Shown here: in pieces, positions 6,779 through 37,919 of the stretch
Position numbering within the stretch: position 1 is the stretch's first letter
Layout: the number at the start of each line of letters is the position of its first letter
From: Patescibacteria group bacterium
Lineage (GTDB): Bacteria > Patescibacteriota > Patescibacteriia > Magasanikbacterales > GWA2-37-8
Reading direction: 5' to 3'
Assembly (NCBI GenBank): GCA_004321885.1
Contig: SCQK01000013.1
Location: 96,001 to 160,000 of the forward strand
Length of the DNA: 64,000 nt
Made by a program: the position numbers and the translations under genes
Notes under the pieces: generated by a model
Told to the model about the DNA's origin: nothing
Databases searched by the model: none
Seen by the model: only the letters and a program-made list of their open reading frames with translations

Positions 6779-7405
6779 CTAATCCGCCCGCAAAAGCTTT
6801 TTTAGGGCTACCAGCGCGCGCAAATGGCGGCTTTTTACGGTGTTAAGCGGTTCGTCCAAAGTTTCGGCGATTTCTTGAAAAGTAAGATGGTCGTTGTAAT
6901 GAAGAAACAGCACATCGCGGTAAGCCGGGGCCAATGAAGCCACGGCCCGGGCCAATTCCTCCGCTAAATTTTTCCGCTCGTACAGCTCCGCGGGCAATGG
7001 CGACGGATCGGCTAATGTCTCTTCAAACCTCTCCGCTTCTTCAGCGCCCGAGTCCAATTGAGAAAAAACCGGCATCTTTTTTTTGCGTAAAAAATCAACG
7101 GCCGTATTATGGGCGATTCTGAAAATCCACGGTTTGAAACTTTTTGTTTGGTCAAATTTCTTCAAATTGCGCCAACATTTGACAAAAGTTTCTTGGGCCG
7201 CGTCTTCGGCATCGGGCGCGTTGCCAAGCCGCCTGTATAAAAAAGCGTAAATCGGCCCCAGCCAGCGGGAAAACAAAAACTCCAGCGCCTTTTGGTCGCC
7301 GCTTAAATATTCGGCCACGAGTTGTGGGTCGGACAATTCTTGCACAAGATAAAGTATATCATTATTTTTGAAAATGTGGTATAATATTGTCGCTATGCCA
7401 GACAT
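6779..7405 (-). CDS. ECF-type RNA polymerase sigma-70 family factor (start moved to the internal Met; the ORF-track start 7588 gives an S/G-rich extension)
   Basis: region 2 (FLFSRWLGPIYAFLYRRLGNAPDAEDAAQETFVKCWRN, FKPWIFRIAHN) and region 4 HTH (LTFQEIAETLDEPLNTVKSRHLRA). Confidence 0.75.
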   Translation of the reverse strand: MSGIATILYHIFKNNDILYLVQELSDPQLVAEYLSGDQKALEFLFSRWLGPIYAFLYRRLGNAPDAEDAAQETFVKCWRNLKKFDQTKSFKPWIFRIAHNTAVDFLRKKKMPVFSQLDSGAEEAERFEETLADPSPLPAELYERKNLAEELARAVASLAPAYRDVLFLHYNDHLTFQEIAETLDEPLNTVKSRHLRALVALKKLLRAD

Positions 7406-7898
7406 AAGCGAGGAGAAACCGTTAGCGGCAGTTGAAGAGAAACCAGCCACTGAAAACGAAACCGAAACGCCCCAGGCGGACCCGGCCGTTGTTGAAGTTG
7501 AGCAAGCGCCGGAAACGGACGAAAAGAAGCCTGAAGCAGAGCCGGCAAGAACCGAGGCTGTCTCCAAGCCGCGTTTTTCGCCTTTCAAAAAACCCGCTCT
7601 GCATTTGCCTCAAAGCCGAGACGAGGTCACGATGAAGATTGAAAAAATTTTAGAGGACGGCTTGAATGAACCATACCAACGCCTGTCGCCCATCGCGCGC
7701 AAGGAATTCAAACTCAAAGGCGAGCAGACCGCGGCCAAAATCCGCGAGCTGATGAGAAGCGCGCGCGTGAAAGCGAAAAAAATCTTGCGCCTGATTTTGG
7801 AGTGGCTAAAAATGCTGCCCGGCATAAACAAATTTTTTCTGGAACAGGAAGCGAAGATAAAAACGGATAAGATAATGGCGCTCAAGAGGGTTTCTTAA
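7395..7898 (+). CDS. hypothetical protein with an acidic E/P/A-rich N-terminus and a conserved basic C-terminal domain; alternative start 7630
   Basis: ORF directly precedes the ATPase gene (3-nt gap); the N-terminal low-complexity part overlaps the divergent sigma gene, so the true start is uncertain. Confidence 0.4.
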   Translation: MPDISEEKPLAAVEEKPATENETETPQADPAVVEVEQAPETDEKKPEAEPARTEAVSKPRFSPFKKPALHLPQSRDEVTMKIEKILEDGLNEPYQRLSPIARKEFKLKGEQTAAKIRELMRSARVKAKKILRLILEWLKMLPGINKFFLEQEAKIKTDKIMALKRVS

Positions 7899-7900
7899 CT

Positions 7901-10447
7901 ATGTTTGAAGAACTCCGCCCCATTCTTGATTTCCTCTCCCAAAATAAAGCATTCATGCTTGTACTCCCCTACCTCGGCGGAGCGTTCGCGCTTTGGATTT
8001 TTTTGAAAATCCTACGTTCGGCATTTCACGCCGGCGGACAAAACAGCCGCGCCTATCACAAAGCCGTCCTTGTCATCAAAGTGCCCAAAGAAAAAAAACA
8101 CGAGGGCCAGCAAAACACCACGGCCGCCGAAGACAACATCACTCAAATCCGCGAGCAAATCGCCATTGCCGAAACACTCTTCTCGGCCATCGCCGGCCTG
8201 CGCCGCGAAAAAAGTTTTTTCCGCTGGCTAATCGGGCGCAACGACCACCTATCGTTTGAAATCGCGGTCATTGACAGCAAAATAAATTTCTACGTGGCCG
8301 TGCCCGAAAAATTAAAAAACTTCGCCGAACAGCAAATCCACGCCCAATACCCACACGCCGAAATATTGGAAGAGCCCGATTACAACATCTTTAAGCCGCA
8401 AAGCCATATTTTGGGCGCCAGCTTGTGGTTCAAATACCGCTCGGCTTTTCCGTTCAAGACCTACAAAAAAATTGACAGCGACCCCCTGCTTGCTTTGCTG
8501 AATCCGCTAAGTAAAATTTTGGACAACGAGGGCGCGCTTATCCAATACATCGTGCGGCCGGCCTCGCCCAAATGGCGACGCCAGGGCGTGCACATGATTC
8601 GCGACATTAAAGAGGGACAGAAATTTGAATACGTGGCCCGGCGCGGAAAAATTTTACGCTCCCTGATGCGTTGGAAAAAAGCGATTTTCCCCAAACGGCC
8701 AGACCCTTCCAAACAAACCAGCGTAGCCGAACCTTATCACTTGACTCAAATGGAAGAAGAGATGGTGAAGTCAATGGAAGAAAAGCTCTCCCACGGCGGG
8801 CTGGAGATTACGATTCGCGTCGTCAGCTCGGCCGACAATAAAGAAAAGGCCCAGCTCAATTTGGAAAATATCTTGAACGCGTACAGCCAATACAATATAT
8901 ATAGGTATGGCAACTCGTTTGGCGCGGCCGTGCCCCGCCGGCCCGGCGCCCTGATACGCGATTCCATTTTCCGCAACTTTGACGACAAGCGCTATATGGT
9001 GGCGGCCACTGATGAAATGGCCAGCTTTTGGCACTTGCCCAACCCGCACACCGAGACCCCGCACATCAACTGGCTGGGGGCGCGCAAGGCTCCGCCGCCG
9101 GTCAACATGCCGAAAGAAGGCGTAATACTGGGCCGGGCTGTTTACCGAACCGAGGAAACCATTGTGCGCAGCCAGCGAACCGACCGCCGCCGTCATCTGT
9201 ACACCATCGGCAAATCCGGCGTAGGCAAATCCAACCTGATACAAAATATGGCCGTTCAAGACGTGCAAAACGGGGAAGGTATCTGCATCATAGACCCGCA
9301 CGGGGATTTCGTGGAATACGTTTTACAACACGTACCCAAAGAACGCGCCGACGACGTGATATATTTTAATCCGGCAGATATTGAGCGTCCGATCGGTTTG
9401 AACATGCTGGAAGTGCGCACCGAAGAGCAAAAGGATTTCGCCACCCAGGAAATGATTTCTATTTTTTACAAATTAGTCACGGACCCGGCCATGATCGGCC
9501 CCATGTTTGAACATAACATGCGCAATGTGATGCTGACCCTGATGTCGGACCTGGAAAACCCGGGCACCATCGCCGAAATTCCGCGCATGTTCACCGACGA
9601 TGAATTCGTGAAGGGCTGGAAGAAAAAATTGACCGACCCCATGGTCTTGGCTTTTTGGGAAAAAGAAATGGCCAAGACCTCGGACTTTCACAAATCCGAA
9701 ATGCTCGGGTATTTAATTTCCAAAGTCGGCCGCTTTGTGGAAAATGCCATGATACGCAATATCATCGGCCAGTCGCATTCGGGTTTTAATTTCCGCGAAG
9801 TGATGGACAGTAAAAAAATTCTGCTGGTGAATTTATCCAAAGGTTTAGTGGGAGAAATAAACTCAAACCTTTTAGGTCTGATTATCGTATCCAAACTGCA
9901 AATGGCCGCTCTGGAGCGCGCCTCCATGCCCGAAGAACAGCGCCATGATTTTTACTTATATATGGACGAGTTTCAAAATTTTATTACCGATTCCATCGCC
10001 ACGATTTTGTCCGAAGCGCGAAAATACCGCCTGTGCCTGGTGATGGCGCACCAATATTTGAAACAGCTGGAAGACAACAAGGGCAAGACCGCGGTGCGCG
10101 ACGCGGTGCTGGGCAACGCCGGCACCATCGCCGCTTTCCGCATGGGCGTGGAAGATGCCGAGGTGCTGGTGAAAGAATTCACGCCGGTCTTTAACGCGTA
10201 CGACTTGGTAAATATAGAACAATACACGGCCTATGTAAAATTGCTTATTGACAACACGGCCGCGAAACCGTTTAATATGATGACCTACCCCCCCACCCCG
10301 GGCAACAAGGAACTGGCCGCGGCCATCAAAGAGCTGTCGCGCCTGAAATACGGCCGGCCGCGCGAAATAGTGGAAGCCGAGATAATTGAACGGGCACAAC
10401 TGTCCGCGATAGGGGGGAAAGCCGAGTTAAGCGAAGCGTCGCTCTAG
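7901..10447 (+). CDS. membrane-anchored TraD/VirD4/HerA-like (FtsK-HerA superfamily) P-loop ATPase with a roughly 415-aa N-terminal module
   Basis: Walker A YTIGKSGVGKSNL; IIDPHGDF box; DEFQNF and EARKYRLCLVMAHQYLKQL motifs typical of coupling-protein/HerA ATPases; N-terminal TM. Confidence 0.7.
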   Translation: MFEELRPILDFLSQNKAFMLVLPYLGGAFALWIFLKILRSAFHAGGQNSRAYHKAVLVIKVPKEKKHEGQQNTTAAEDNITQIREQIAIAETLFSAIAGLRREKSFFRWLIGRNDHLSFEIAVIDSKINFYVAVPEKLKNFAEQQIHAQYPHAEILEEPDYNIFKPQSHILGASLWFKYRSAFPFKTYKKIDSDPLLALLNPLSKILDNEGALIQYIVRPASPKWRRQGVHMIRDIKEGQKFEYVARRGKILRSLMRWKKAIFPKRPDPSKQTSVAEPYHLTQMEEEMVKSMEEKLSHGGLEITIRVVSSADNKEKAQLNLENILNAYSQYNIYRYGNSFGAAVPRRPGALIRDSIFRNFDDKRYMVAATDEMASFWHLPNPHTETPHINWLGARKAPPPVNMPKEGVILGRAVYRTEETIVRSQRTDRRRHLYTIGKSGVGKSNLIQNMAVQDVQNGEGICIIDPHGDFVEYVLQHVPKERADDVIYFNPADIERPIGLNMLEVRTEEQKDFATQEMISIFYKLVTDPAMIGPMFEHNMRNVMLTLMSDLENPGTIAEIPRMFTDDEFVKGWKKKLTDPMVLAFWEKEMAKTSDFHKSEMLGYLISKVGRFVENAMIRNIIGQSHSGFNFREVMDSKKILLVNLSKGLVGEINSNLLGLIIVSKLQMAALERASMPEEQRHDFYLYMDEFQNFITDSIATILSEARKYRLCLVMAHQYLKQLEDNKGKTAVRDAVLGNAGTIAAFRMGVEDAEVLVKEFTPVFNAYDLVNIEQYTAYVKLLIDNTAAKPFNMMTYPPTPGNKELAAAIKELSRLKYGRPREIVEAEIIERAQLSAIGGKAELSEASL

Positions 10448-10477
10448 TGTCATTCCGGCCCCCGAGCCGGAATCCAG
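10448..10477. repeat. family-A hairpin repeat GTCATTCCGG-N7-CCGGAATCCAG
   Basis: other copies 11562-11588 (inside dnaX), 21342-21368, 21505-21530, 50745-50773, 55957-55991, 61391-61419 (inverted), 63974-64000 (partial). Confidence 0.85.
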
Positions 10478-10481
10478 TAAC

Positions 10482-11987
10482 ATGTCCACCCTCTACCGCC
10501 TCTACCGCCCGCAGAAGTTCGCCGACGTGACGGGCCAAGAGCACATCATCCAAACCATAACCAACGAGATATGCGCCGCTAAAACGGCGCATGCTTATCT
10601 ATTCTCGGGCCCGCGCGGCACCGGCAAGACCACCCTGGCCCGTCTGCTGGCTAAGGCCGTGAACTGCCAAAACCGCAAAGATGGGGAATCTGAACCGTGC
10701 AATGAGTGCCCATCTTGCGCGGAAATTTCCGCCAGCCGCAATATAGACGTAATGGAAATAGACGCGGCCTCGCATACGGGCGTGGAAAATGTGCGCGAAA
10801 ATATCATAGACAGCGCGCAATTTCAGCCCACCAAATCCAAATACAAAATTTTCATCATAGACGAGGTGCACATGCTTTCCACTCCGGCTTTCAACGCCCT
10901 GCTCAAAACCCTGGAAGAGCCGCCGGCGCACGTGATTTTCGTGCTGGCCACCACCGAACTGCAAAAACTGCCGGCTACCATTGTATCGCGCTGTCAACGT
11001 TTTACCTTCAAAAAAATCGGCTTTGACCAGATGATGAGCAAACTTTTGAAAATCTGCAAAGACCAGGACGTAAAGGTGGACAAAAAAGTGCTGGAGCGGG
11101 TGATAAACAAAAGCGACGGCTGTATGCGCGACGCTGAATCCCTGCTTGGTCAAATTTTAACGTTGAATCAAAAAAATATCGGGCCCGAAGACGCGGAAAT
11201 GATTTTGCCCACGTCCAATGCGCGACAGATTTTGAATTTCGTGGATGCAATTTTGAACCGCGACGTTAAAAGCGCCGTGGCTCTGATAAACGAACTGGTT
11301 TCCGACGGCGTGAATCTGGAGCAATTCGCCTATGACGCGCTGGAAATTTTGCGCCTGCTGATGATTTTGCAATACGACCCAACCAAGGAAATTTTGGATT
11401 ACAGCGACGAAGACGCCAAACTGATTAAAAAAATGACCAAACAGGCGCCGGCCGAGCAGATTATAAAATTAACGGACGCGCTGATGGCGCGCCGAGCGCA
11501 AATTAAATCCGCGCCTATTCCCCAGCTGCCCCTGGAGCTCTTCGCCGTGGAATTCTCAAACTGTCATTCCGGACTTGATACGGAATCCATCGCCGCCAAC
11601 TGTCATTCTGAGGCCCCGCTTAGCGGGGACGGAGAATCCCTCTCGCCATCTATCACGCAAAAAATCAAAACCACTCTGGACGAAATTAAAAACAAGTGGC
11701 ACGATATAACTGCCGGCCTCACCGAACAAAATCACTCACTCGGCTTTATCCTGAAAATGGGCGAACCGGCCAGAATGGAAGGAAATGAACTGTATTTGCG
11801 CGTGCCATTTTCCCTGCACAAAGAAAAAATTGAAGAGCAAAAAACCAAAAAATTGATAGAGGGCGCGATGACAGACGCCTTTGGGGAAAAAATTTGCCTG
11901 ATTTGCGAGGTGACGCAGGCGCAAAATGATGATGGCGAAATCACCCAGCTCGCGAGTGAATTTGGGGGTGAAGTTGTCTCACTCTAA
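10482..11987 (+). CDS. dnaX: DNA polymerase III subunit gamma/tau
   Basis: YRPQKFADVTGQEHI, AHAYLFSGPRGTGKTT, Zn module CNECPSC, box IFIIDEVHML; carries an in-frame repeat insertion at 11555-11613. Confidence 0.9.
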   Translation: MSTLYRLYRPQKFADVTGQEHIIQTITNEICAAKTAHAYLFSGPRGTGKTTLARLLAKAVNCQNRKDGESEPCNECPSCAEISASRNIDVMEIDAASHTGVENVRENIIDSAQFQPTKSKYKIFIIDEVHMLSTPAFNALLKTLEEPPAHVIFVLATTELQKLPATIVSRCQRFTFKKIGFDQMMSKLLKICKDQDVKVDKKVLERVINKSDGCMRDAESLLGQILTLNQKNIGPEDAEMILPTSNARQILNFVDAILNRDVKSAVALINELVSDGVNLEQFAYDALEILRLLMILQYDPTKEILDYSDEDAKLIKKMTKQAPAEQIIKLTDALMARRAQIKSAPIPQLPLELFAVEFSNCHSGLDTESIAANCHSEAPLSGDGESLSPSITQKIKTTLDEIKNKWHDITAGLTEQNHSLGFILKMGEPARMEGNELYLRVPFSLHKEKIEEQKTKKLIEGAMTDAFGEKICLICEVTQAQNDDGEITQLASEFGGEVVSL

Positions 11988-11997
11988 CCATCCCCAC

Positions 11998-12831
11998 ATG
12001 AAAATAATTATAATATCTTTATTACTAATCCTTGCTCCGGTCGCAGTTTCGTCAAAAACTCTAGTCAACCTTAACGTGCCCTTTACTCCGGAAACACCGG
12101 ACAATGTTTGGACAGCGCCCTGGAAAGACGCCTGCGAAGAGGCCAGTATCGTGATGGTCAGCCAATATTATTTAGGCAAACAAAACGCGCTCATACCAAA
12201 AGCGGCCGCCAAGGCGCTGATGCAAAAATATTTTACGATAGAAAACAAAATTTTTGGCTGGAACGCCAACACCGACGCGGCGCATACGGCTAAACTCATA
12301 AACGAGCACTCAAAAATTTTTGCCGCGGAAATAAAAAACAATCCGACGTTGGCAGAAATTAAAGCCGAGGTACAGGCCGGCCGGCCGGTAATTGCCGCCT
12401 TAAACGCTCTTGCGTTGACAAAAATCAACGACCATTTGCGCTTCCGCCGCAACGGCTCGTATTATCACATGCTGGTCATAGTGGGCTATGACGATGAAAC
12501 GAACGAGTTTATCGTGAACGATAACGGCGATTACAGCGGACTTGACCATCGCTACAGTTATGATATTATAATGGACTCTTTGCGCGATTACAGCTACAAA
12601 ACGCACAAGGCGAACGGCCCGGCGCGGGCGTTATTTACTTATCGCAAAATGCTGGCCAAAACCGCGACCAGCAACCGAATTTATTGGATAGAAAAAAATG
12701 TGAAACAATACGTCACCCACCCGGCCGTATTCAAACAACGCGGTTGGAGATGGGCCAACGTGCAGGTGGTGGAAAAAAGTGTGTTGGATGGGTTGACCAG
12801 CGGCACGCCAATCGCGCCATTGTCATCCTGA
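11998..12831 (+). CDS. secreted papain-like (peptidase C39-like) domain protein
   Basis: signal peptide MKIIIISLLLILAPVAVSS; catalytic-Cys context WKDACEEASIVMVSQYY and His context HMLVIVGYDDETNEF. Confidence 0.55.
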   Translation: MKIIIISLLLILAPVAVSSKTLVNLNVPFTPETPDNVWTAPWKDACEEASIVMVSQYYLGKQNALIPKAAAKALMQKYFTIENKIFGWNANTDAAHTAKLINEHSKIFAAEIKNNPTLAEIKAEVQAGRPVIAALNALALTKINDHLRFRRNGSYYHMLVIVGYDDETNEFIVNDNGDYSGLDHRYSYDIIMDSLRDYSYKTHKANGPARALFTYRKMLAKTATSNRIYWIEKNVKQYVTHPAVFKQRGWRWANVQVVEKSVLDGLTSGTPIAPLSS

Positions 12832-12860
12832 ATTTATTTCAGGATCTCCAACCCGTAACC

Positions 12861-12930
12861 TCCGAGGTCGTCTAATGGCAGGACTCGAGACTCTGAATCT
12901 CGATATCTAGGTTCGAATCCTAGCCTCGGA
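12861..12930 (+). tRNA. tRNA-Gln (anticodon CTG), no encoded CCA
   Basis: acceptor TCCGAGG/CCTCGGA, anticodon stem CGAGA/TCTCG with loop CTCTGAA, T-arm CTAGG-TTCGAAT-CCTAG. Confidence 0.7.
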
Positions 12931-12933
12931 ACA

Positions 12934-13644
12934 ATGAAGATCGTCATTGTAATTCCCACATACAACGAAAGGAAGAACATCTCCAAACTAACCGAGAAAA
13001 TTTTTGCTTTGCGAATTGACGGGCTGGAAATGATCGTAGTGGACGACGGCTCGCCCGACGGAACCGGCGACAAGGTAAAAAAATTGGGCGAACGATTTCC
13101 GGTGACCCTGCTGGCGCGCGAAAAAAAACGCGGACTCGGTTCGGCTTACCTCGCCGGATTCAAGAAAGCCCTGGAAATGGGGGCTGATTTTATTTTTGAA
13201 ATGGACGCGGATTTGTCGCACGACCCCGACGACGTGCCAAGATTACTGGAGCCGTGCCTGGACGGCGCCGATTTGGCCATCGGCTCGCGCCGGGTGGCCG
13301 GCGGAAAGATTATCGGATGGGGCTGGGCGCGCAAATTCATGAGCGCCGGAGCCATGCGGCTGTCGCGCCTGATACTTCAATTAAAAAACAAAGACGTTAC
13401 CTCCGGCTTCAGATGTTGGCGCCGCGAAGCGCTTTTAAGAATTGACTTGGACAAAATCAAAAGCAACGGCTACGCTTTTCAGGAAGAAATACTCTGGCGC
13501 GCCCAGCAGGCGGGCCTGAAAATTGCCGAGGTACCGGTAATTTTTGTTGACCGCGAAGAAGGCAAATCCAAACTGGGCTGGAGAGAGGTATTGGAATTTT
13601 TTAAAGTAATGCTGTCATTGCGAGCGAAGCGAAGCAATCCCTAA
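12934..13644 (+). CDS. GT2 family dolichyl/polyprenyl-phosphate mannose (or glucose) synthase-like glycosyltransferase
   Basis: VVIPTYNE, VVDDGSPDGT, DAD motif, Dpm1-like fold; the C-terminal 11 aa are read from a family-B repeat. Confidence 0.8.
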   Translation: MKIVIVIPTYNERKNISKLTEKIFALRIDGLEMIVVDDGSPDGTGDKVKKLGERFPVTLLAREKKRGLGSAYLAGFKKALEMGADFIFEMDADLSHDPDDVPRLLEPCLDGADLAIGSRRVAGGKIIGWGWARKFMSAGAMRLSRLILQLKNKDVTSGFRCWRREALLRIDLDKIKSNGYAFQEEILWRAQQAGLKIAEVPVIFVDREEGKSKLGWREVLEFFKVMLSLRAKRSNP

Positions 13645-13693
13645 CACAAATGATTGGGATTGCTTCGGCGCTATGCGCCGCCTCGCAATGACA
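13613..13693. repeat. family-B nested palindrome GTCATTGCGAGCG..AAGCAATCCC..GGGATTGCTTCG..CTCGCAATGAC
   Basis: other copies 13859-13940, 19249-19298 (half), 21854-21937, 63753-63846. Confidence 0.85.
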
Positions 13694-14648
13694 ATAACAA
13701 CTCGTCAAAGGTTTTCACCCTCATTAATTTCATTTTTAATTCCTTCACTCCGGGAACGCCTTTGAAATAATAGGCGAGGTGTTTGCGAAAAGTTACCATA
13801 CTTCCTTCGCCGTAGCGCTCTAAATGCAGTTGCGCATGGCGGAGAATGACGTTTAAAATGTCATCGCGAGGAGACTGCAGGCCGACGAAGCAATCCCCTG
13901 CTTTATCAGATGGGGTTGCTTCGCTACGCTCGCAATGACAACGGAAAATCCACGGGTTGCCAAGCGCCCCGCGGCCTATCATCACGCCGTCCGCGCCAGT
14001 AATTTCCAAACACCGGCGGATGTCTTCGGACGAATTTATATCACCATTGGCCAGCGCCGGAATCTTTAACAACTTTTTCACGCGGCCAATCATTTCCCAG
14101 TTCGCTTTGCCGCTGTAGCCCTGCGTCTTGGTGCGGCCGTGAATCGTGAGTAAATCAGCGCCGGCCGCTTCCAATTTAGGCGCGAACTCCAAAATTTCTT
14201 CCTCTCTCCCCCACCCCAGCCGCGTCTTCACGGAAATCGGCGCGCCCAAATCCGCTTTTTTTAATTCTGCCACGATTTTTACCGCTCGCTCGTGGTCTTT
14301 CATCAAAGCCGCGCCCGAATTGACTTTGCCGGTTAATTTCGGCACCGGACAGCCCATATTAATGTCAATCCCGTCGGGTTTAAATTTTTCAACTAAAATC
14401 TCCGCGGCCTGACGCACTTGTTTGGGCTCGGCGCCGAACAATTGCAAAACAATCGGCCTTTCAATCGCGTCAAACTCGCACATTTTCAAGGTCTTGGCGT
14501 TGCCGCGGCAAATCGCCTCGGCGCTCACCATTTCCCGAAAAATCACGAAATCCGGGCCTGAAACCTCGCGGCAAACGCGACAAAACGGCCCGTCGGTCAT
14601 ATCGGCCATGGGCGCGAGCGCGACAATAGATCGTTCATCCATCCACAT
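13671..14648 (-). CDS. dusB: tRNA-dihydrouridine synthase (start moved to the internal Met; ORF-track start 14876)
   Basis: LAPMADMTDGPFCRVCRE, GIDINMGCP, TIHGRT, MIGRGALGNPWIF; contains an in-frame repeat at 13859-13940, and the C-terminus runs into a repeat at 13613-13693. Confidence 0.8.
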   Translation of the reverse strand: MWMDERSIVALAPMADMTDGPFCRVCREVSGPDFVIFREMVSAEAICRGNAKTLKMCEFDAIERPIVLQLFGAEPKQVRQAAEILVEKFKPDGIDINMGCPVPKLTGKVNSGAALMKDHERAVKIVAELKKADLGAPISVKTRLGWGREEEILEFAPKLEAAGADLLTIHGRTKTQGYSGKANWEMIGRVKKLLKIPALANGDINSSEDIRRCLEITGADGVMIGRGALGNPWIFRCHCERSEATPSDKAGDCFVGLQSPRDDILNVILRHAQLHLERYGEGSMVTFRKHLAYYFKGVPGVKELKMKLMRVKTFDELLLSLRGGA

Positions 14649-14709
14649 AGTAAAAATTAAGGGCCTCCGCGAAGACGCGAGGAGGCCCATCTTGCGTCGA
14701 CGCGCCTCC

Positions 14710-15312
14710 TCATCGCGCCGACGAGAACTGATAAACCAAACCCGGATTCTGATACTTCCCCGACGGGTCGCGGTAGCCGAGCTCGCTCCGGCCAGCCTTG
14801 GCGAGCGTCTCGGCAAAGAGATCGACGACAACCTCCTCGCCGCCCTCACCGGCAACCACCACCCAGGTGTAGCCAAATCCGAGGCCCGGCAGCATCTTGC
14901 CGCACGCCCTGGCCTGCAACCCCGCCTCCATCAGCAAGACAAACAGATAGGCGTGATAGTACCGGCAGCACGCTATGGCATGGCTGAGCGCGAATGACAG
15001 TTTGGCCTGCTCCGGCGAGGGCGAGAACACGAATCTGTGATACGTCTGGCGCGCATCCTCGTCCAGCTTCGTGTCGTTAGCCAGAACCACCGCGTTATGC
15101 GGCAACGCGGCGAGCACGAGGGTCTTTACCGCCGCAAGTCGCGCGCCGATGCCCTGCGGAGAGCTGGCTTGTTCCCGCGCCAGCCGCAGATGACATCCTA
15201 TGAAGCGGTACTCGTCATCCATCTGCACGTCGAAGATGTTCTCTCCCACCCACTGTCGCCTCGCCTCAACGACCTGGGGCTTCCCGTTGTCTGCCTGCCC
15301 GTTGTCTGACAT
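14710..15312 (-). CDS. hypothetical protein in a GC-rich (about 60%) island
   Basis: 200-aa ORF with high third-position GC, unlike its neighbours; no recognisable domain. Confidence 0.35.
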   Translation of the reverse strand: MSDNGQADNGKPQVVEARRQWVGENIFDVQMDDEYRFIGCHLRLAREQASSPQGIGARLAAVKTLVLAALPHNAVVLANDTKLDEDARQTYHRFVFSPSPEQAKLSFALSHAIACCRYYHAYLFVLLMEAGLQARACGKMLPGLGFGYTWVVVAGEGGEEVVVDLFAETLAKAGRSELGYRDPSGKYQNPGLVYQFSSAR

Positions 15313-15373
15313 GTTCTCTCTCTCCTGTTTTTGCTAACAAAATAATGCCCAAAAAATCGTTTTCTGTCAACAA

Positions 15374-15402
15374 TTGCGTAATTTCATTTCTCGGGTTATA
15401 AT
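15374..15402 (+). promoter_or_regulatory. sigma70-like promoter (TTGCGT-17-TATAAT) for the downstream gene
   Basis: hexamers with a 17-nt spacer about 50 nt upstream of ATG 15455. Confidence 0.4.
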
Positions 15403-15454
15403 ATCCGAAAGATTTGACATAAGCAAGCTATCCGCCTTGCGCCATTAAACCAAT

Positions 15455-16030
15455 ATGAAAAAAATCATCGCCGTAGCCGCAGTCATCATAGTCGCCGCCG
15501 GCCTCTGGTACGGTTTTACACTTAACAGTAAGAAGCAAACCAACAGTTCCAACGACTATCAAAAATACGAAAACACCGCTTACGGTTTTAGTTTGGAATA
15601 CCCGAAAACCTGGCACGCGACCGGAGCAAGCGCCACTTCCACGGTTATCAGTTTCAACGACACGGCGCCCAGCGAACCTGTGGAGGGCGCAGAGACGACC
15701 TCATCAGCCGTGATAGACATCATGATAATAGAAAACTACGACAACATCAGCTTGGGGGAATGGACTGACTTGTCTTTGGGGCTGGGGCCGGAACTGAACA
15801 TTTTGAGCGAAGAAACAATTGAAGCAAACAATACAAAATTTTTGGTGAAAACTTTTACGCCCCTGAAATTGCCCGAGGCCGCGCCGACCGCGGCGGCTTT
15901 TACCGCCTTGAATGATGAAAAATATTTCGCGCAAATTAACTACATGGGCGAAGAGCCGAATTTTACCGCCGGCATGAAACATTTCAAGCATTTACTGTCC
16001 AGTTTTCAGTTGACTTCGGCCGCGCCGTAG
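15455..16030 (+). CDS. membrane-anchored or secreted hypothetical protein
   Basis: N-terminal signal or TM MKKIIAVAAVIIVAAGLW; no catalytic motifs. Confidence 0.55.
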   Translation: MKKIIAVAAVIIVAAGLWYGFTLNSKKQTNSSNDYQKYENTAYGFSLEYPKTWHATGASATSTVISFNDTAPSEPVEGAETTSSAVIDIMIIENYDNISLGEWTDLSLGLGPELNILSEETIEANNTKFLVKTFTPLKLPEAAPTAAAFTALNDEKYFAQINYMGEEPNFTAGMKHFKHLLSSFQLTSAAP

Positions 16031-16061
16031 GATATAATGCAATAACTAAAAAATTTCAGAT

Positions 16062-16697
16062 ATGCGAACTTCCCTTCCATTTACCCATCGCCAGCTCTCC
16101 CCTTCGCCGCCTTCGCGGCATGAGAAAGGGGAGAGGGGGACGACTGCAATATTGCCAGCTATATTGCTCATCGCGTTTGGCATTGCGGCGAGATTTTTGC
16201 CCCATCCGGCGAACTTTACTCCCATCGGCGCCATTGCTATTTTTGGCGGACTGTATCTGCCCAAAAAACTTTCTGTTTGGCTGCCTCTCTCGGCCATGCT
16301 TATCAGCGATATTTTTATCGGCTTTTATTCATTGCCGATTATGGCCAGCGTGTACGTCGGCTTTATGTTCGCCAATCTGCTATCCTTGACAGCGCGGGGC
16401 AAACTCGCATATACAAAAACCGCCTTTGGGCGGTTTGGGACTATTGCCGGCGCCACGGCGCTAAGTTCAGCCATTTTTTACCTCTTGACAAACGCGGCGG
16501 TTTGGGCATTCGGCTCTATGTATCCGCACAATTTCACCGGCCTTTTGGAATCATACTACCTGGCTCTCCCCTTCTTCCGAAACAGCCTGGCGGGCGACGT
16601 TTTCTTCACTTTCGTTTTAGTAGGCGGGATGGAGTTGCTAAAACATACGTTAAGGGATTCCTCCGCTCTCCGCCGGCTGGCGAATCGATCGGAATGA
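16062..16697 (+). CDS. polytopic membrane protein (ECF-transporter S-component-like); the N-terminal 28 aa are read through a family-D repeat
   Basis: 5-6 predicted TM helices; possible alternative TTG start near 16150. Confidence 0.5.
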   Translation: MRTSLPFTHRQLSPSPPSRHEKGERGTTAILPAILLIAFGIAARFLPHPANFTPIGAIAIFGGLYLPKKLSVWLPLSAMLISDIFIGFYSLPIMASVYVGFMFANLLSLTARGKLAYTKTAFGRFGTIAGATALSSAIFYLLTNAAVWAFGSMYPHNFTGLLESYYLALPFFRNSLAGDVFFTFVLVGGMELLKHTLRDSSALRRLANRSE

Positions 16698-16699
16698 CA

Positions 16700-18118
16700 T
16701 TATCCATACGGTAACTCCTCTGGCTCTGGCGGTTCTTCTTTTCTCTCTTCTTCCACAGCAGGCCCGACAGGCAAATCCAAATCAATGGGCAAGCCAAACG
16801 GCGGCTCCGAGCGCTTGGTGGCGGATTTCTGCAACAACGGGGTCTTCACACTCGGCAACGGGAAGTGCCACAAAGTGGCCAGCTCTTCTATGTTCAAAAT
16901 ATAGGGCGTGCCGTACACTTTAATCTTGCGCTTCTTAAACGCGTTCACGAATTTGCGTTTTTTCCAAACCACTATAAGCTTCTTAAACGCGTAGTAGGCC
17001 TTGGTCACCACGTAGGGCGTGAGCTGGTTGCGGTTGACCATGCTAAATTGCTTTAGCGAGCCGACATAGCCGTCCAAGCACCGCGAGGGATTGAAAACTT
17101 CCTTGCGCGCCACATACAGGGCGCGTATTTTTGTCTTAAAGCCGACCTTGGCGATTTTGTCTTCCACGGCCTGCACCGTATTTTTCAGGCCCGGCGGCAA
17201 TTCGCTCACTTTGCCGGCCACGACCTCTTCCCTTTTGACTTCTTTTTCCTTTGGTTCAAAGTTCCAATTCCACACGTCCATGAGCATCTCAAACAGCTTG
17301 GCCGGCAAACCCAAAATGCCGCCCAGAATGCCGGCCTTGGCCGGGGCTTTTTTTTGCGCGATGATTTCCTTTACCAGACTGATGCCGGCGGCCTGCCAGG
17401 TATCGGCCACTGGCTCAATCACGATTTGCGTGAAAAAATTCTCGCCCGCCCCGAGTCGCGTGAAATTTTCCAGCACCGCGGCCATAGGGTCGTTGAACAT
17501 GGCGTCTTTGGTCACGCTGTGCTCAAACTCGGGATAGGTGCGGATGGGGTAGGCATTGTGGCCGGCTAAAGTGAATTCCACGCCGAAGACGTCTTCCGCG
17601 TCATTGGGAAATTTTGTCGGAATGACGCCGACATAATCCTCTATTTCCGTGATTTCGGCCGTCGGGTATTGGGCGTAAATGGCCGCTTCCACCACGTCGC
17701 GAAATTCTTGCTCGGTATAAATTAAAAATTGAATATAGCCGGCCATGGAAATAATCTCAAAGCTGAACCACTTTTGTTTTTTGCCCAGCCAAAATTTTTC
17801 GCCGACATTGGGCCCGACCAGCGCGCCCGACAGGTGCGAAAAAAGCTGTTCCACGGCCTTGGGGCTTTGAATCACCTCTTGCGGAATCTCAATGGCCAGC
17901 ACGAGCCATTTCCATTTGCTTGTGTAAAGCCCCTGCCGATACCACAGCCACAGCTCCTGCCCCATGTAGAAAAAAATTAAGAGCAAAATAGCCCAGCCGA
18001 TGATGCCAAACAGGGCCAAAATTATTTTTCCGCTGGACCACGTAAGCAATTGGTCCCAAAACGAAAAATTTAGATTGAATGAGACTCCGCCAAAAGGCGA
18101 CTCCATGCCAGTGGGCAT
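16700..18118 (-). CDS. ATPase-less paralogue of the N-terminal module of the 848-aa ATPase (7901-10447)
   Basis: shared blocks: LVLAIEIPQE/VLVIKVPKE, EQLFSHLSGAL/ETLFSAIAGL, FSFEI...AAIYAQYPTAEITE/SFEI...QQIHAQYPHAEILE, ELATLWHFPLP/EMASFWHLPNP; N-terminal TM; no P-loop. Confidence 0.65.
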   Translation of the reverse strand: MPTGMESPFGGVSFNLNFSFWDQLLTWSSGKIILALFGIIGWAILLLIFFYMGQELWLWYRQGLYTSKWKWLVLAIEIPQEVIQSPKAVEQLFSHLSGALVGPNVGEKFWLGKKQKWFSFEIISMAGYIQFLIYTEQEFRDVVEAAIYAQYPTAEITEIEDYVGVIPTKFPNDAEDVFGVEFTLAGHNAYPIRTYPEFEHSVTKDAMFNDPMAAVLENFTRLGAGENFFTQIVIEPVADTWQAAGISLVKEIIAQKKAPAKAGILGGILGLPAKLFEMLMDVWNWNFEPKEKEVKREEVVAGKVSELPPGLKNTVQAVEDKIAKVGFKTKIRALYVARKEVFNPSRCLDGYVGSLKQFSMVNRNQLTPYVVTKAYYAFKKLIVVWKKRKFVNAFKKRKIKVYGTPYILNIEELATLWHFPLPSVKTPLLQKSATKRSEPPFGLPIDLDLPVGPAVEEERKEEPPEPEELPYG

Positions 18119-18119
18119 A

Positions 18120-18281
18120 TCATTTATTTATAAACCGGTACACGCCGCCATAGATAATCAAAACCCCTAACACTGTCCACCACCAGCCAAACAAACCCGA
18201 AACATAGCCGGCGTAATAGGCAATAACGCAAATGATGGTGGCAATAGCCGCCACCATGTGACGCACGAGATTATCGGTCAT
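18120..18281 (-). CDS. 53-aa hydrophobic peptide (MTDNLVRHMVAAIATIICVIAYYAGYVSGLFGWWWTVLGVLIIYGGVYRFINK), absent from the ORF track
   Basis: two predicted TM helices; the stop lies 1 nt before the start of the 472-aa paralogue on the same strand. Confidence 0.4.
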   Translation of the reverse strand: MTDNLVRHMVAAIATIICVIAYYAGYVSGLFGWWWTVLGVLIIYGGVYRFINK

Positions 18282-18306: not shown

Positions 18307-19221
18307 TCACACAACCGCCCGCCTTTGCCATTTTTCCGCCAGCACCAGCAGAGGGGCGGCGATAAAAATGGAAGAATACGCCCCGCTGGCAAAACCAATA
18401 AGCAGGGCCAGGGCGAAGTAATGGATAGAAGCGCCGCCAAAGAGATAAAGGGCGATAAGGGCGAACAAAGTGGTAACGGTCGTGTTGATAGAGCGCATTA
18501 AAGTCTGGTTCAGACCGTTGTTAACCACCTCGGCAAAGTCTTCGTTGCGCCGGCGCAATAAATTTTCCCTGATGCGGTCGTAGACCACGATGGTGTCGTG
18601 CACGGAAAAACCCAGCACGGTTAAGAGAGCCACCACGAAAGCAATATCCACCTCCACGCCCCAGCCATGCCCCAAAACCGAAAAAATACCCATCACCAAA
18701 AAGACGTCATGCACCACCGCGATTATGGCCAACAGGCCGTATTTCCAGCTGGCCACGGGCCGCGACACCTTGCGAAAGGCATAGGCGATATACAATATAA
18801 TGCCCAGGTTGACGAAGATAATGGCCCACACCGCCCGCGTGCGCAATTGCTTGCTTACGGCCGAGCCGATTGTTTCAAAACTAATTTCCTTCACCGTGTT
18901 TTCTTTGGTCTGAAAATTTTGCGTCAAGCGCTTTAGCGCCTCCTGATGTTTTTCTTCGCTCAAAAATTCGGTGCGGATAATAATGCTGTCTTCGCCGACG
19001 TTTTGAACTTGAACATTTTTCAAATCCACTTCGGCAAAAACTTTTTGCACATCAGCGGCCGGCGGCCGGTTGCGGCTAAACGATATTTCCAACAGAGAAC
19101 CGCCGGTAAAGTCAATGCCCGGCTTTAGCCCCCACATAAATATCAAAACAAAGGCGGCCACAGTTACCAGTCCGCTGAAACTAAGCAGTACCTTGGAATA
19201 CTTTATGAATGGTATGGTCAT
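18307..19221 (-). CDS. secF: protein translocase subunit SecF
   Basis: SecF signature KPGIDFTGGSLLEI plus a 6-TM core. Confidence 0.85.
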   Translation of the reverse strand: MTIPFIKYSKVLLSFSGLVTVAAFVLIFMWGLKPGIDFTGGSLLEISFSRNRPPAADVQKVFAEVDLKNVQVQNVGEDSIIIRTEFLSEEKHQEALKRLTQNFQTKENTVKEISFETIGSAVSKQLRTRAVWAIIFVNLGIILYIAYAFRKVSRPVASWKYGLLAIIAVVHDVFLVMGIFSVLGHGWGVEVDIAFVVALLTVLGFSVHDTIVVYDRIRENLLRRRNEDFAEVVNNGLNQTLMRSINTTVTTLFALIALYLFGGASIHYFALALLIGFASGAYSSIFIAAPLLVLAEKWQRRAVV

Positions 19222-34809: not shown

Positions 34810-36131
34810 ACAAATTTTTCTTTTAAGTAATTACTTAAATCTTTTATTGCCACCCTGTTTTGCTTCATGGTATCACGGTCGCGCACGGTGATTTTTTTGT
34901 CTTCCAGCGAATCAAAGTCCACTGTCACGCAATACGGGGTGCCGATTTCATCCTGCCGGCGATAGCGCTTGCCGATGCTTTGGGTGTCGTCGTAATCTAC
35001 CGCGAAATCAGCGCGCAAAGCCGCGGCCACCTCTTTAGCTACCTTAGCCAGATTTTCTTTTTTAGACAAGGGCAAAACAGCGACCTGTACCGGCGCCAAA
35101 TGTTTGGGAAATTTCATCACCACGCGCGTTTCGGTTTCGCCTTTTTCCGCCGTGGGGGCCTGTTCTTCGTGATACGCTTCCAACAAACACACCAGCAACG
35201 TGCGGTCTATGCCAAAGGTTGGCTCTATCACGTGCGGCAAAAACTTTTCGCCGGTTTCCGGGTCAGTATAATGCAAATCCTGCCCGCTCACAGCCTCGTG
35301 GCGCGACAAATCAAAATCCGTGCGATAGGCAATGCCGTGCAACTCTTGCGTTCCAAACGGGTATTTGTATTCAATATCCACCGTGCGCTTGCTGTAGTGG
35401 GCGCGCTCGTTGTCCGGTATTTCGCGCCAGACCAGATTATCCGTGTTTACTTGCATGGCATCTTTCCACCAGCGCTTGATTTCACTAAGCCACATTTCAA
35501 AAACTTTTTCCCATTCATCGGGCTTGATAAAATATTCCAGCTCGCCGATTTCAAATTCGCGCGTGCGGAAAATAAAATTGCCGGGCGTAATTTCATTGCG
35601 GAAACATTTGCCGATTTGGGCGATACCGAAAGGCAAACGGCGGCGAGTAGTGTTGACGATGTTTTTGAAATTGACGAACATGCCGCCGGCGGTCTCCGGG
35701 CGCAAATAAGCCGTGGTGGCGGTGTCTTCGGTGGTGCCCAAAAACGTCTTGAACATCAAATTAAAACTTTTTGGCGCGGTCAGCGCGCCGCCGCAGTCCG
35801 AACATTTTTTCCTTTTGGGGAGCTGGTCGCTGCGAAAACGATGATGGCACTTTTTACACTCCACCAGCTCATCGGAAAAATTTTGCAAATGCCCCGAGGC
35901 CTCCCAGGCCTTGGGGTTCATGATGATGGCGCTATCCAGCGGCACCATATCCTCGCGCTCTTGCACGAAAAATTTCCACCACAGTGATTTGATATTTTGT
36001 TTTAGCAAATGCCCGAGCGGGCCATAATCCCAGCTGTTAGCCAGTCCGCCGTAAATCTCACTGCCCGGGAACACAAACCCGCGCCGTTTGCACAGCGACA
36101 CGATTTTATCCATCAGGTCATTTTCTGGCAT
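34806..36131 (-). CDS. proS: proline--tRNA ligase (archaeal/eukaryote-type class II)
   Basis: class II motifs 2 and 3 (FRNEITPGNFIFRTREFEIGELEYF, GIAYRT...), C-terminal Zn-binding/anticodon-binding domain of the archaeal type. Confidence 0.9.
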   Translation of the reverse strand: MPENDLMDKIVSLCKRRGFVFPGSEIYGGLANSWDYGPLGHLLKQNIKSLWWKFFVQEREDMVPLDSAIIMNPKAWEASGHLQNFSDELVECKKCHHRFRSDQLPKRKKCSDCGGALTAPKSFNLMFKTFLGTTEDTATTAYLRPETAGGMFVNFKNIVNTTRRRLPFGIAQIGKCFRNEITPGNFIFRTREFEIGELEYFIKPDEWEKVFEMWLSEIKRWWKDAMQVNTDNLVWREIPDNERAHYSKRTVDIEYKYPFGTQELHGIAYRTDFDLSRHEAVSGQDLHYTDPETGEKFLPHVIEPTFGIDRTLLVCLLEAYHEEQAPTAEKGETETRVVMKFPKHLAPVQVAVLPLSKKENLAKVAKEVAAALRADFAVDYDDTQSIGKRYRRQDEIGTPYCVTVDFDSLEDKKITVRDRDTMKQNRVAIKDLSNYLKEKFV

Positions 36132-36310
36132 AAAATTTCAAATATTAATTCCATCAAACCCTTGACAAATGACGATTATGTGTTACACTATAATCAAATG
36201 TTAGCTGAACACTGACCGTATGGCAGGTGTCCCGGGGCGACTTGGGAATAGGCTATTCCCCCTTAAATGGGGGTTTTATTTTTTTATAATTCTAACACAA
36301 AAATCATTTT

Positions 36311-37908: not shown

Positions 37909-37919
37909 AAGCAGAAAAT

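Follow-up and report, generated by a model that had tools for sequence, protein, structure and literature searches.

We consider it fairly likely that two translocation-ATPase systems, paralogous to each other and built on the domain DUF8128, are partly encoded in the 64,000-nucleotide stretch of DNA analysed here (the window), one of them fused and the other split (Table 1). The first of these (System A) consists of the product of a 167-aa ORF and an 848-aa protein that joins anchor, DUF8128 and motor in one chain, whereas the second (System B) distributes the same design over two genes, a standalone DUF8128 anchor and a soluble motor. An earlier note on this DNA had placed four ORFs here, and all of them are present in the ORF list.

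Table 1. Positions in the window of the genes, domains and motifs discussed in the text.
Feature	Position	Strand	Basis or context
Small ORF before the ATPase, 167 aa from ATG 7395 or 176 aa from TTG 7368	7368/7395..7898	+	
A-type (fused) DUF8128 + motor protein, 848 aa	7901..10447	+	ORF list, Pfam, homologues
Single TM helix of fused ATPase, residues 17-35	7949..8005	+	Hydropathy scan
DUF8128 module of fused ATPase, ~residues 42-404	8024..9112	+	BLASTP, HHalign range, PF26449
WHLP in fused ATPase, residues 377-380	9029-9040	+	
Motor domain of fused ATPase, ~residues 405-848	9113..10444	+	
Walker A GKSGVGKS, residues 437-444	9209-9232	+	
Walker B-like FYLYMDE, residues 684-690	9950-9970	+	
dnaX	10482-11987	+	Directly downstream of fused ATPase
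C39-like peptidase	11926-12831	+	Downstream of dnaX
Standalone DUF8128 protein, 472 aa	16700..18118	-	ORF list, BLASTP, HHalign
WHFP in 472-aa paralogue, residues 417-420	16859-16870	-	
Single TM helix of 472-aa paralogue, residues 32-50	17969-18025	-	Hydropathy
53-aa peptide, two hydrophobic segments	18120..18281	-	ORF list, HMM, tblastn
secF	18307-19221	-	Context
secD with inserted PpiC-type PPIase domain	19231-21333	-	Context

Sequence comparison shows the 472-aa protein to be a true paralogue of the module at the N-terminus of the 848-aa ATPase. Residues 19-404 of the ATPase align with residues 46-444 of the paralogue at 22% identity (BLASTP, E=5e-22), and at the family level the similarity is overwhelming (HHalign probability 100%, E=8.9e-41, 344 columns). 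The homology is confined to the N-terminal module, as the earlier note had proposed: a P-loop was looked for in the 472-aa protein and is absent, and the WH(L/F)P motif is indeed common to both proteins. The membrane anchoring claimed for the module also stands, with the helix being single-pass and each protein having one, at its N-terminus. The C-terminal tail of the paralogue (...PEELPYG) is conserved. Given 83 invariant columns among 50 sequences, the paralogue is still under constraint.

Comparison with relatives identifies the 472-aa protein, at the level of sequence, as orthologous to the subunit that anchors the split B-type system in the membrane, since it is 32-45% identical to split-type anchors versus only 22% to the A-type module. 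Of 71 related loci with room downstream of the DUF8128 gene, 52 have a separate soluble ATPase gene directly behind the orthologue of the paralogue, and none is fused. The gap between anchor and motor genes has a median of 6 nt (10 nt or less in 28 of 45 scored pairs), and 42 of the 45 B-type motors have no TM helix. The tail of the B-type motor is basic and usually carries a CxxC...CxxC treble-clef zinc finger (the CxxC...CxxC tail occurs on 40 B-type ATPases, and zf_Tbcl_2 scores above its Pfam cut-off there). This tail belongs to B-type motors of other lineages and is found on no protein of the window. One related locus (L037) carries A-type and B-type systems together. The standalone DUF8128 gene and the soluble motor gene are thus a split second copy of the fused machine, and because its own ATPase gene follows the orthologue in most loci, the 472-aa protein represents the membrane half of that copy. 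The earlier note had read it as a decoy or partner duplicating the membrane module of the ATPase; a motor gene of its own in so many loci makes this not the best fit, and the protein is probably not a decoy.

The window clade departs from this arrangement. No adjacent ATPase gene was found at any of its 10 loci with room downstream of the paralogue (L006-L010, L012-L014, L016 and L017). In addition, a distance of 5-10 kb separates the genes for the fused ATPase and the paralogue in the window, L001/L005, L003, L006, L009 and L010. Both lie on the same contigs in relatives, so that neither of the outcomes which the earlier note had named as refuting its case, dissimilar N-terminal profiles and a pair that does not co-occur, was observed. 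Together with the constraint on the paralogue, the lack of an adjacent ATPase gene and the 5-10 kb spacing would be expected if the 472-aa protein had turned, in this clade, into a partner or regulator, itself without a motor, of the 848-aa ATPase in mixed DUF8128-DUF8128 assemblies, for which the 'central' and 'outside' subunits of VirB4, dimerising via their N-terminal domains, offer a parallel (PMC9259494). We nevertheless regard such a partnership as unlikely, because orthologues in most lineages own a motor gene and a second lineage (L031-type, 9 loci) has also lost motor adjacency with no fused ATPase nearby. Moreover, GW2011_GWA2_37_8, a member of the window clade, has one of the two genes on one contig and the other on another, and it also encodes two additional T4CP-like genes away from the paralogue, with ambiguous class labels in Table S3. 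Under the two-system interpretation, the B-type motor gene of the window clade would simply no longer be adjacent, and the anchor most likely still has a T4CP-like motor as its partner, the gene for which would lie at another place in the genome.

The fused ATPase is ordered as an N-terminal TM helix, DUF8128 and a P-loop motor of the VirB4/VirD4 class. Its earlier assignment to the TraD/VirD4/HerA class holds: TrwB_AAD_bind, T4SS-DNA_transf, DUF87 and TraG-D_C all score above their Pfam cut-offs on residues 429-756 (PF10412, 46.7 bits against 20.5; PF02534, 33.8 against 20.1; PF12696, 28.5 against 22) and Walker A is present. T4CP sequence families therefore fit the NBD, and the Walker A/B motor, which has the HerA-FtsK fold, places the protein in the HerA/FtsK superfamily. 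A 100% identical protein (P0121) is named T4SS conjugative DNA transfer family protein. The NCBIfam equivalogs for TraD/VirD4 were far from being reached (the best, SXT_TraD, gave 46.1 bits where 366 are required), as was VirB4_plasma (18.7 bits against 590), and at E<=0.1 the Pfam search returned no CagE_TrbE_VirB, AAA_10, P-loop_TraG or TraC_F_IV match. By sequence the A-type motor thus looks like a coupling protein (VirD4/TraD/TrwB), and in its predicted structure it looks like the C-terminal domain of VirB4, TrwB or HerA. Basic residues after the TM helix indicate a cytoplasmic location for everything that follows it, a topology inferred also from there being only one TM helix and an ATPase that must be cytoplasmic.

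One N-terminal helix tethers DUF8128, a domain of ~370 aa, to the membrane, and the domain lies on the cytoplasmic side since it is continuous with the ATPase in the fused form. A Pfam scan of the 472-aa paralogue, with a model set that lacks DUF8128, gave no match at all. Precomputed annotations place PF26449 (DUF8128) on P0121 and, among the matches listed, on 120 of 120 ATPase homologues and 120 of 120 paralogue homologues (49-62% identity). The predicted fold of the domain agrees with that of the N-terminal domain of VirB4, the T4SS ATPase, a purely structural link based on AF2 models (pLDDT 76-78) with low Foldseek TM-scores (~0.3). Compared with TrwK in HHalign, the DUF8128 family reached a probability of 0.3%, and a profile search of PDB sequences with DUF8128 gave no match. 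In these models the module has the VirB4 N-terminal fold and the motor the VirB4 C-terminal fold. Because the DUF8128 model fits the VirB4 N-terminal domain, the fused protein is, as modelled, VirB4-like in architecture, and not a TraD/VirD4 protein with a new front end.

The DUF8128 proteins are nonetheless distinct from VirB4 itself (TrwK of R388, TraC, TrbE, PrgJ), to which they have no sequence-level similarity. Unlike VirB4, the fused protein brings a TM helix of its own at the N-terminus, and in Pfam the DUF8128 motor matches families of T4CPs and none of the VirB4-type families searched above. The concept of a motor-less paralogue of an ATPase N-terminal domain beside a motor gene has an analogue in TrsD of pGO1 and its Patescibacteria homologues; canonical Patescibacteria VirB4 usually has an adjacent VirB4-NTD-like TrsD gene, and 1,664 of 2,272 TrsD homologues are VirB4-associated. 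However, TrsD homologues belong to PF11130 and sit beside canonical virB4, whereas DUF8128 proteins belong to PF26449 and occur beside T4CP-like motors or alone. The same fused DUF8128 and motor architecture is found in Bacillus phage G gp156 and its SP-10-like phage homologues. Phage G gp156 matches residues 144-814 of the fused ATPase (tblastn, E=1e-36, 22% identity), its N-terminus matches the paralogue (E=1e-9), and phrog_5156 matches the fused ATPase (E=4e-83). Unlike the window protein, this jumbo-phage gene lies beside a VirB4-type ATPase gene (gp155) and a TrbL/VirB6-like gene (gp153).

This phage neighborhood, together with the T4CP assignment of the sequence families, could also be explained if the DUF8128 proteins were distantly encoded coupling proteins that deliver substrates to the channel of the canonical Patescibacteria T4SS (VirB4-TrsD-VirB3-VirB6). 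T4CP genes are often far from virB4 (PMC12102498), and the VirB4-TrsD-VirB3 cluster is present in window-clade genomes. We find such a role improbable, given that VirD4-like genes are more widespread than VirB4 (2,918 of 3,035 Patescibacteria genomes, with 5,713 homologues, versus 2,417 genomes) and that only 148 of the 5,713 are near virB4, a distribution for which possible exaptation has been raised (PMC12102498). It would also be unusual for a coupling protein to occur in two paralogous systems of the same genome, both within housekeeping operons. In Ca. Southlakia epibionticum the T4SS is essential but the T4CP homologue, which may or may not be of the DUF8128 type, is reportedly not. Furthermore, canonical T4CPs (VirD4, TrwB, TraD, DotL, Cag-beta) have a two-TM N-terminus that leads straight into the NBD and no VirB4-like N-terminal domain, whereas the fused DUF8128 protein has one TM helix followed by a 370-aa VirB4-NTD-like domain, and the B-type motor lacks a TM helix and has its anchor as a separate protein. 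Relaxase or Mpf genes are not near DUF8128 proteins: no relaxase/Dtr or T4SS channel gene was detected among the annotated ORFs of the window (positions 1 to ~37,200) or, by Pfam, among the recurrent neighbors in 80 related loci, and the annotated ORFs include no virB4 either. The earlier suggestion of an uncharacterised membrane-associated apparatus of T4SS type is retained, while its proposed pilus or competence link is dropped, as no such genes occur among the annotated window ORFs.

The neighbors that do recur are housekeeping genes. Directly upstream of the peptide-paralogue pair and on the same strand are secD and secF, likely forming an operon with them. In 46 of 80 related loci secDF likewise lies upstream of DUF8128, with secA also close by; secDF is only a putative member of the system. 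On the other side, the synteny of dnaX and a C39-like peptidase behind the fused ATPase is kept within Magasanikbacteria only. This setting invites a housekeeping membrane role, either Sec-linked protein export or insertion or, given that dnaX follows the fused gene and that the motor is in the HerA/FtsK superfamily, FtsK-like chromosome handling at division. The DUF8128 module also resembles EccE of the mycobacterial ESX type VII protein secretion system, but this match is much weaker, covers only 115-166 residues, and comes with no sequence similarity and no other ESX genes. We judge a role of this kind to be quite improbable.

The housekeeping context, the A-type identity of 73-80% across the clade, the lack of any match in a plasmid search and the lack of a close relative among viral contigs all argue for inheritance by descent, and we lean towards both DUF8128 systems being chromosomal and vertically inherited in several Patescibacteria lineages. 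The same observations, along with the stable synteny, the unremarkable GC content of the region and a total of at least 558 species-level matches, make it very improbable that these genes come from a mobile element, such as a conjugative ICE or prophage remnant, or serve defence as an anti-phage ATPase of HerA/Dnd/MADS type would; neither a relaxase or integrase nor a nuclease or sirtuin partner is near. An anti-phage HerA/MADS/Dnd system was considered and rejected, as only the ATPase core matches mad8, DndH and HerA and the neighbors are housekeeping genes.

By analogy with VirB4, DUF8128 may dock and oligomerise the motor at the membrane, where the presumably hexameric motor would pump a polymer, most likely nucleic acid, probably independently of the canonical T4SS. 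VirB4 N-terminal domains alone mediate dimerisation (PMC9259494). They are also wrapped by the two-TM protein VirB3, for which the window clade has a putative counterpart in the 53-aa peptide. The peptide precedes the paralogue as virB3 precedes virB4 in R388, with 1 nt between its stop and the start of that gene it is translationally coupled to the paralogue; VirB6, VirB8 and VirB2 genes are absent nearby among the annotated ORFs. Thus, on the basis of size, topology and gene position, the peptide might act as a VirB3-like membrane partner of the anchor. As the earlier note had noticed, the peptide is directly before the paralogue, and it is a conserved gene (shared core GWWWT...YGG, reading GWWWT...YGGVY in the window) in this position in 14 distinct related loci (L001/L003, L006-L010, L012-L014 and L016-L018 by HMM, L011 by tblastn); counted handle by handle, the HMM matches take in all of L001-L010. 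No relative was found by HMM in split-type loci other than L021, which has only a weak 4-TM relative. The peptide is thus an accessory specific to Magasanikbacteria and not a component that the system has throughout.

The small ORF whose stop lies 2 nt before the fused ATPase start has no Pfam, NCBIfam, PHROGs or PADLOC match except for a sub-threshold one to Nucleo_P87 (E=0.022). Its product begins with an acidic stretch of low complexity and ends in a basic helical domain of ~95 aa. As the earlier note had proposed, both this ORF and the 53-aa peptide go together with the genes for the DUF8128 proteins. The conservation of this basic domain, also pointed out earlier, is evident from 66% identity over the C-terminal 94 aa with the equivalent ORF in L005, and by tblastn the ORF also precedes the fused ATPases of L006, L010 and L037.

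The open reading frame call recovered all four genes where the earlier note had placed them (see table), and the note's assignment of the system to the TraD/VirD4/HerA-like ATPases of T4SS type was right. Residues 429-756 of the 848-aa protein match TrwB_AAD_bind, T4SS-DNA_transf, DUF87 and TraG-D_C above the Pfam cut-offs, and both Walker motifs can be recognized. By sequence profile this motor is nearest to coupling proteins, and its scores against the NCBIfam TraD/VirD4 equivalogs are far under their cut-offs.

Coordinates of the genes and motifs discussed here (window positions unless stated otherwise)
Feature	Position	Strand	Source
Fused ATPase, 848 aa	7901-10447	+	ORF call
Walker A, GKSGVGKS	residues 437-444 of the 848-aa protein		
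Walker B-like, FYLYMDE	residues 684-690 of the 848-aa protein		
Paralogue, 472 aa	16700-18118	-	ORF call
53-aa peptide	18120-18281	-	ORF call
Small ORF before the ATPase	start TTG 7368 or ATG 7395, end 7898	+	ORF call
T4SS-like trio gp153, gp155, gp156	JN638751.1 87090-97159		Bacillus jumbo phage G (L086)

The proposed homology between the N-terminal module of the ATPase and the 472-aa protein, which has no P-loop, was upheld. In BLASTP, residues 19-404 of the ATPase align with residues 46-444 of the paralogue (22% identity, E=5e-22), and HHalign of the two families, the check suggested with the proposal, gave a probability of 100% (E=8.9e-41, 344 columns). The outcome named in the note as refuting, a lack of profile-profile similarity, thus did not arise, and the two proteins are true paralogues. 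Each is a member of a large family from Patescibacteria, and large-database searches place the closest relatives of both among Candidatus Magasanikbacteria. PF26449 (DUF8128) is precomputed on homologues of both, including one that is 100% identical to the ATPase, and our literature search found no paper that mentions DUF8128. Scans of the paralogue against NCBIfam, PADLOC and a Pfam copy without the DUF8128 model returned zero matches, as did sequence and profile searches of its family against PDB sequences. Each protein has one N-terminal hydrophobic helix and, because the fused protein continues into the ATPase after this single helix and basic residues trail it, the DUF8128 module is probably cytoplasmic.

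In models, the DUF8128 fold resembles the N-terminal domain of VirB4, which spans residues 15-400 in TrwK, the VirB4 of R388 (PMC9259494). The match is to this domain, since the query lacks a P-loop and the fold-match lists include neither TrwB nor the crystal structure containing only the C-terminal domain of VirB4 nor other P-loop proteins. The resemblance is a fold-level statement: a Pfam scan, a PDB profile search and HHalign against TrwK found no sequence-level link between DUF8128 and VirB4, the last (probability 0.3% for the DUF8128 family) having little power, as a single sequence served as template. Each half of the modeled 848-aa protein resembles the matching half of VirB4. No alignment of full-length TrwK with the full-length model (pTM 0.53) spanned both domains, probably because the inter-domain geometry of the model is uncertain. 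We placed the protein neither among the canonical T4CPs, whose defining N-terminal architecture and genomic association it lacks, nor among the canonical VirB4 proteins, as sequence membership is lacking; we describe it instead as a VirB4-like architecture with a T4CP-like motor.

A scan of species-representative genomes detected relatives of the paralogue at 558 or more loci, and we compared the best 80 of these, from Magasanik-, Falkow-, Buchanan-, Kerfeld- and Uhrbacteria and Parcubacteria-group MAGs. Among the 71 loci with room downstream, 52 have a standalone DUF8128 gene followed on the same strand by a separate ATPase gene, whose ATPase domain is 41-47% identical to the motor of the window; the two genes are fused in none of the loci. 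The gap between them has a median of 6 nt and is at most 10 nt in 28 of 45 scored pairs. The motors of this split (B-type) system are 526-962 aa long, lack any TM segment in 42 of 45 cases and, according to a homology search, form a very large and well conserved family; in 40 of them the tail carries a CxxC...CxxC motif called by Pfam as zf_Tbcl_2. Their C-terminal tails are long, very basic and of low complexity (e.g., L020 1755-3749, L021 3615-5354 and L057 11713-14601, among the related loci fetched). They contain treble-clef zinc fingers of the form CxxC-x17-CxxC, singly or in pairs, and terminate in a short G(Q/E)x(I/V)xFD motif that is conserved. The paralogue of the window is 32-45% identical to the standalone anchors but only 22% identical to the fused module, and is therefore an orthologue of the B-type anchors. 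One related locus (L037) encodes both a fused (A-type) gene with its small upstream ORF and a split pair. The usual gene order is secD - secF - sigma-70-region-4/HARE-HTH protein - DUF8128 - motor, with secDF upstream of the DUF8128 gene in 46 of the 80 loci. In 38 of the 80, the conserved sigma-70 region 4 and HARE-HTH protein (about 390 aa; cluster C2; e.g., L040 8562-9872) separates secF from the DUF8128 gene. Many of the MAG records (L007, L008, L011, L016 and others) are titled “uncultured Gammaproteobacteria bacterium,” which, given their gene content and similarity to Magasanikbacteria, looks like a placeholder or mislabel.

These comparisons bear on the suggestion of the earlier note that the paralogue is a motor-less decoy or partner of the fused ATPase. 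With a motor gene of their own beside the anchors in most loci with room, this is probably wrong in general but may hold in the clade of the window, Magasanikbacteria with the 53-aa peptide upstream of the paralogue, which stands apart. No motor gene follows the paralogue in the window or in the 10 loci of its clade with room (L006-L010, L012-L014, L016, L017), the 53-aa peptide occupies the slot of the sigma-like gene, and the fused ATPase lies 5-10 kb from the paralogue in the window, L001/L005, L003, L006, L009 and L010. Adjacency has also been lost in a second, unrelated group of nine loci (L031-type). A large homology search with a B-type motor as query returned no match on a known contig of the window's clade. 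In GW2011_GWA2_37_8, the paralogue (KKQ41006.1) and the fused ATPase (KKQ41333.1) are on different contigs, and Table S3 of a recent survey (PMC12102498) indicates a canonical VirB4-TrsD-VirB3 cluster as well as two more T4CP-like genes, numbered 222 and 223 and adjacent to each other. Its class labels do not single out the B-type motor: we considered the “t4cp1 60.0%” entries as candidates and rejected them, as accession mapping showed confirmed B-type motors under “t4cp2 ~65%” or “t4cp1 74.6%.”

The 53-aa membrane peptide, claimed earlier from an unannotated reading frame, is a real and conserved gene. Its stop codon lies 1 nt from the start codon of the paralogue, and it is found directly upstream of the paralogue in 14 distinct loci of the Magasanikbacteria type (L001/L003, L006-L010, L012-L014 and L016-L018 by HMM, L011 by tblastn), the exception among those fetched being the short contig L015. 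It has an invariant-looking core, GWWWT...YGG, and in one Magasanikbacteria locus where the motor is still adjacent (L021) there is a duplicated, 4-TM relative. The only match in Pfam, NCBIfam and PADLOC was a sub-threshold one to Pfam YgaP-like_TM (E=0.009). The stop codon of the small ORF is 2 nt ahead of the ATPase start. Its basic C-terminal domain proved conserved, as had been claimed (66% identity over 94 aa in L005), and the ORF also precedes fused ATPases in L006, L010 and L037; the same three databases gave only a sub-threshold match to Pfam Nucleo_P87 (E=0.022). A perfect extended -10 element, TGGTATAAT, occurs at nt 7378-7386 (+), approximately 9 nt before the ATG of this ORF (window 7376-7397), which points to a transcript of the small ORF and the ATPase with little or no leader; having no -35 match, the element is not listed by a consensus promoter scan. 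On the opposite strand, the longest ORF of an ECF-type sigma factor (6779-7588, -; 269 aa if begun at TTG) shares about 200 nt with the 5' part of the small ORF. Its true start is probably further downstream, since sigma-70 region 2 begins only at residue 105.

The DUF8128 genes of the window have a housekeeping setting that includes a MacB/FtsX-ABC-HlyD efflux set, the ECF-type sigma factor, dnaX, a C39-like peptidase, GT2, Dus, DUF6580, SecD, SecF, SecA, TPI and an aminoacyl-tRNA synthetase. GC content around them is unremarkable, the plasmid collection contained no match to the paralogue, and viral contigs scanned with the ATPase contained no close relative. Together with the 73-80% identity of A-type proteins across the clade, this argues for vertical inheritance rather than residence in a mobile element or defense island. 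We thus rejected a conjugation gene of a mobile element, given the GC content, the plasmid result and the lack of a relaxase among the ORFs annotated at positions 1 to ~37,200 of the window, as well as a defense system, given the housekeeping neighbors. The same annotated stretch contains no VirB4, VirB6, pilin or competence gene, and the pilus- or competence-like apparatus entertained in the earlier note was set aside as unsupported.

The 2025 survey counted 5,713 VirD4-like homologues in 2,918 of 3,035 Patescibacteria genomes and VirB4 in 2,417, with only 148 of the 5,713 near virB4; in 96% of genomes it finds “orphan” VirD4-like ATPases, about two apiece and for the most part distant from the T4SS, whose role it leaves open, and its authors do not exclude exaptation (PMC12102498). 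In Ca. S. epibionticum the T4SS is essential whereas the VirD4-like homologue is not (PMC12102498). The survey counts the fused protein family as T4CP, and its Table S3 gives several T4CP-like genes per genome (PMC12102498). It also describes TrsD, a separate gene remotely homologous to the N-terminal portion of VirB4 and usually beside the canonical Patescibacteria VirB4 (1,664 of 2,272 TrsD homologues are VirB4-associated; PMC12102498), which sets a direct precedent for a motor gene adjoined by a separate gene for the N-terminal domain. Outside Bacteria, gp156 of phage G combines DUF8128 and motor (tblastn E=1e-36 over residues 144-814; N-terminus versus paralogue E=1e-9), and phrog_5156 spans this whole architecture. 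Its neighbors are gp155, a VirB4-type ATPase (P-loop_TraG, AAA_10), and the TrbL/VirB6-like gp153, so in at least one case the architecture is tied to T4SS-type gene sets. The record annotation of gp156, “ATP-binding/permase; MsbA-like,” appears wrong.

VirB4 of R388 dimerizes wholly via its N-terminal domains, and the small VirB3 protein, which has two TM helices, is wrapped around the VirB4 N-terminal domain (PMC9259494). The DUF8128 module would similarly be a membrane-tethered cytoplasmic scaffold that docks and oligomerizes a hexameric HerA/FtsK-class motor, with the 53-aa peptide, by analogy, perhaps in a VirB3-like role. Polymer translocation is the most likely activity of the motor. 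Nucleic acid is the favored substrate because of the T4CP-type domain signature, the basic zinc-finger tails of B-type motors and the DNA-translocase fold neighbors, an indirect basis to which, within the window, only the motor itself contributes; protein export and service to the canonical T4SS are live alternatives. In a more far-reaching reading that we consider unlikely, Patescibacteria would possess in the DUF8128-motor systems a minimal translocase with a housekeeping role, independent of the T4SS. A VirB4-type N-terminal domain kept on a coupling-protein-like motor would represent an intermediate or ancestor-like form between VirB4 and VirD4, moving nucleic acid across or at the cytoplasmic membrane (e.g., scavenging DNA or nucleotide polymers, whether environmental or taken from hosts). 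Substrate or direction would differ between the fused and the split paralogue, and in Magasanikbacteria the system would have been rewired into a motor-less anchor with its mini-peptide.

The Patescibacteria form a vast bacterial group, most of it uncultured, whose members have tiny genomes and depend on hosts; a host-independent nucleic-acid transporter, if real, would matter for the supply of building blocks in such reduced-genome bacteria. The families are already catalogued as DUF8128 and “T4CP homologues,” and we found no earlier account of how the folds are related, of the pairing of fused and split forms or of the small partners. What is new is the combination, in a T4SS-family ATPase, of a coupling-protein-like motor with a VirB4-like front end, which occurs as both fused and split paralogues. 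The DUF8128-linked orphan ATPases thereby gain an architecture (VirB4-like N-terminal domain, fused and split forms, small partners and the zinc-finger tail of the split motor), and a vague annotation becomes a set of testable hypotheses on which proteins assemble, where they are located and whether DNA is moved. On this comparison, VirB4-type N-terminal scaffolds may be common to a wider set of HerA/FtsK-class secretion motors (VirB4, DUF8128 proteins and perhaps EccE together with EccC), a point of relevance to the divergence of VirB4 and coupling proteins.

Some features of the surroundings are observations in their own right. In SecD (19231-21333, -), the first periplasmic subdomain is separated from the P1 head by the insertion of a PPIase domain of PpiC/parvulin type (Rotamase_3, E=2e-32, residues 253-364), a fusion also present in the relative L003. 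A convergent DUF6580 membrane protein (16062-16697, +; E=4e-43) directly follows the paralogue, as a neighbor also found in L003, L006, L008, L009, L014 and L016. Between dus and the DUF8128 paralogue, the close relative L001 encodes a bAvd and reverse transcriptase (RVT_1) pair typical of a diversity-generating retroelement (12762-14179, equivalent to L005 16932-18349) that is missing at the equivalent place in the window. Finally, GC content falls to 0.36 at 36001-38000, compared with about 0.50 elsewhere, and this block, which includes an N6/N4 DNA methylase (36311-37234), is probably a horizontally acquired restriction-modification island.
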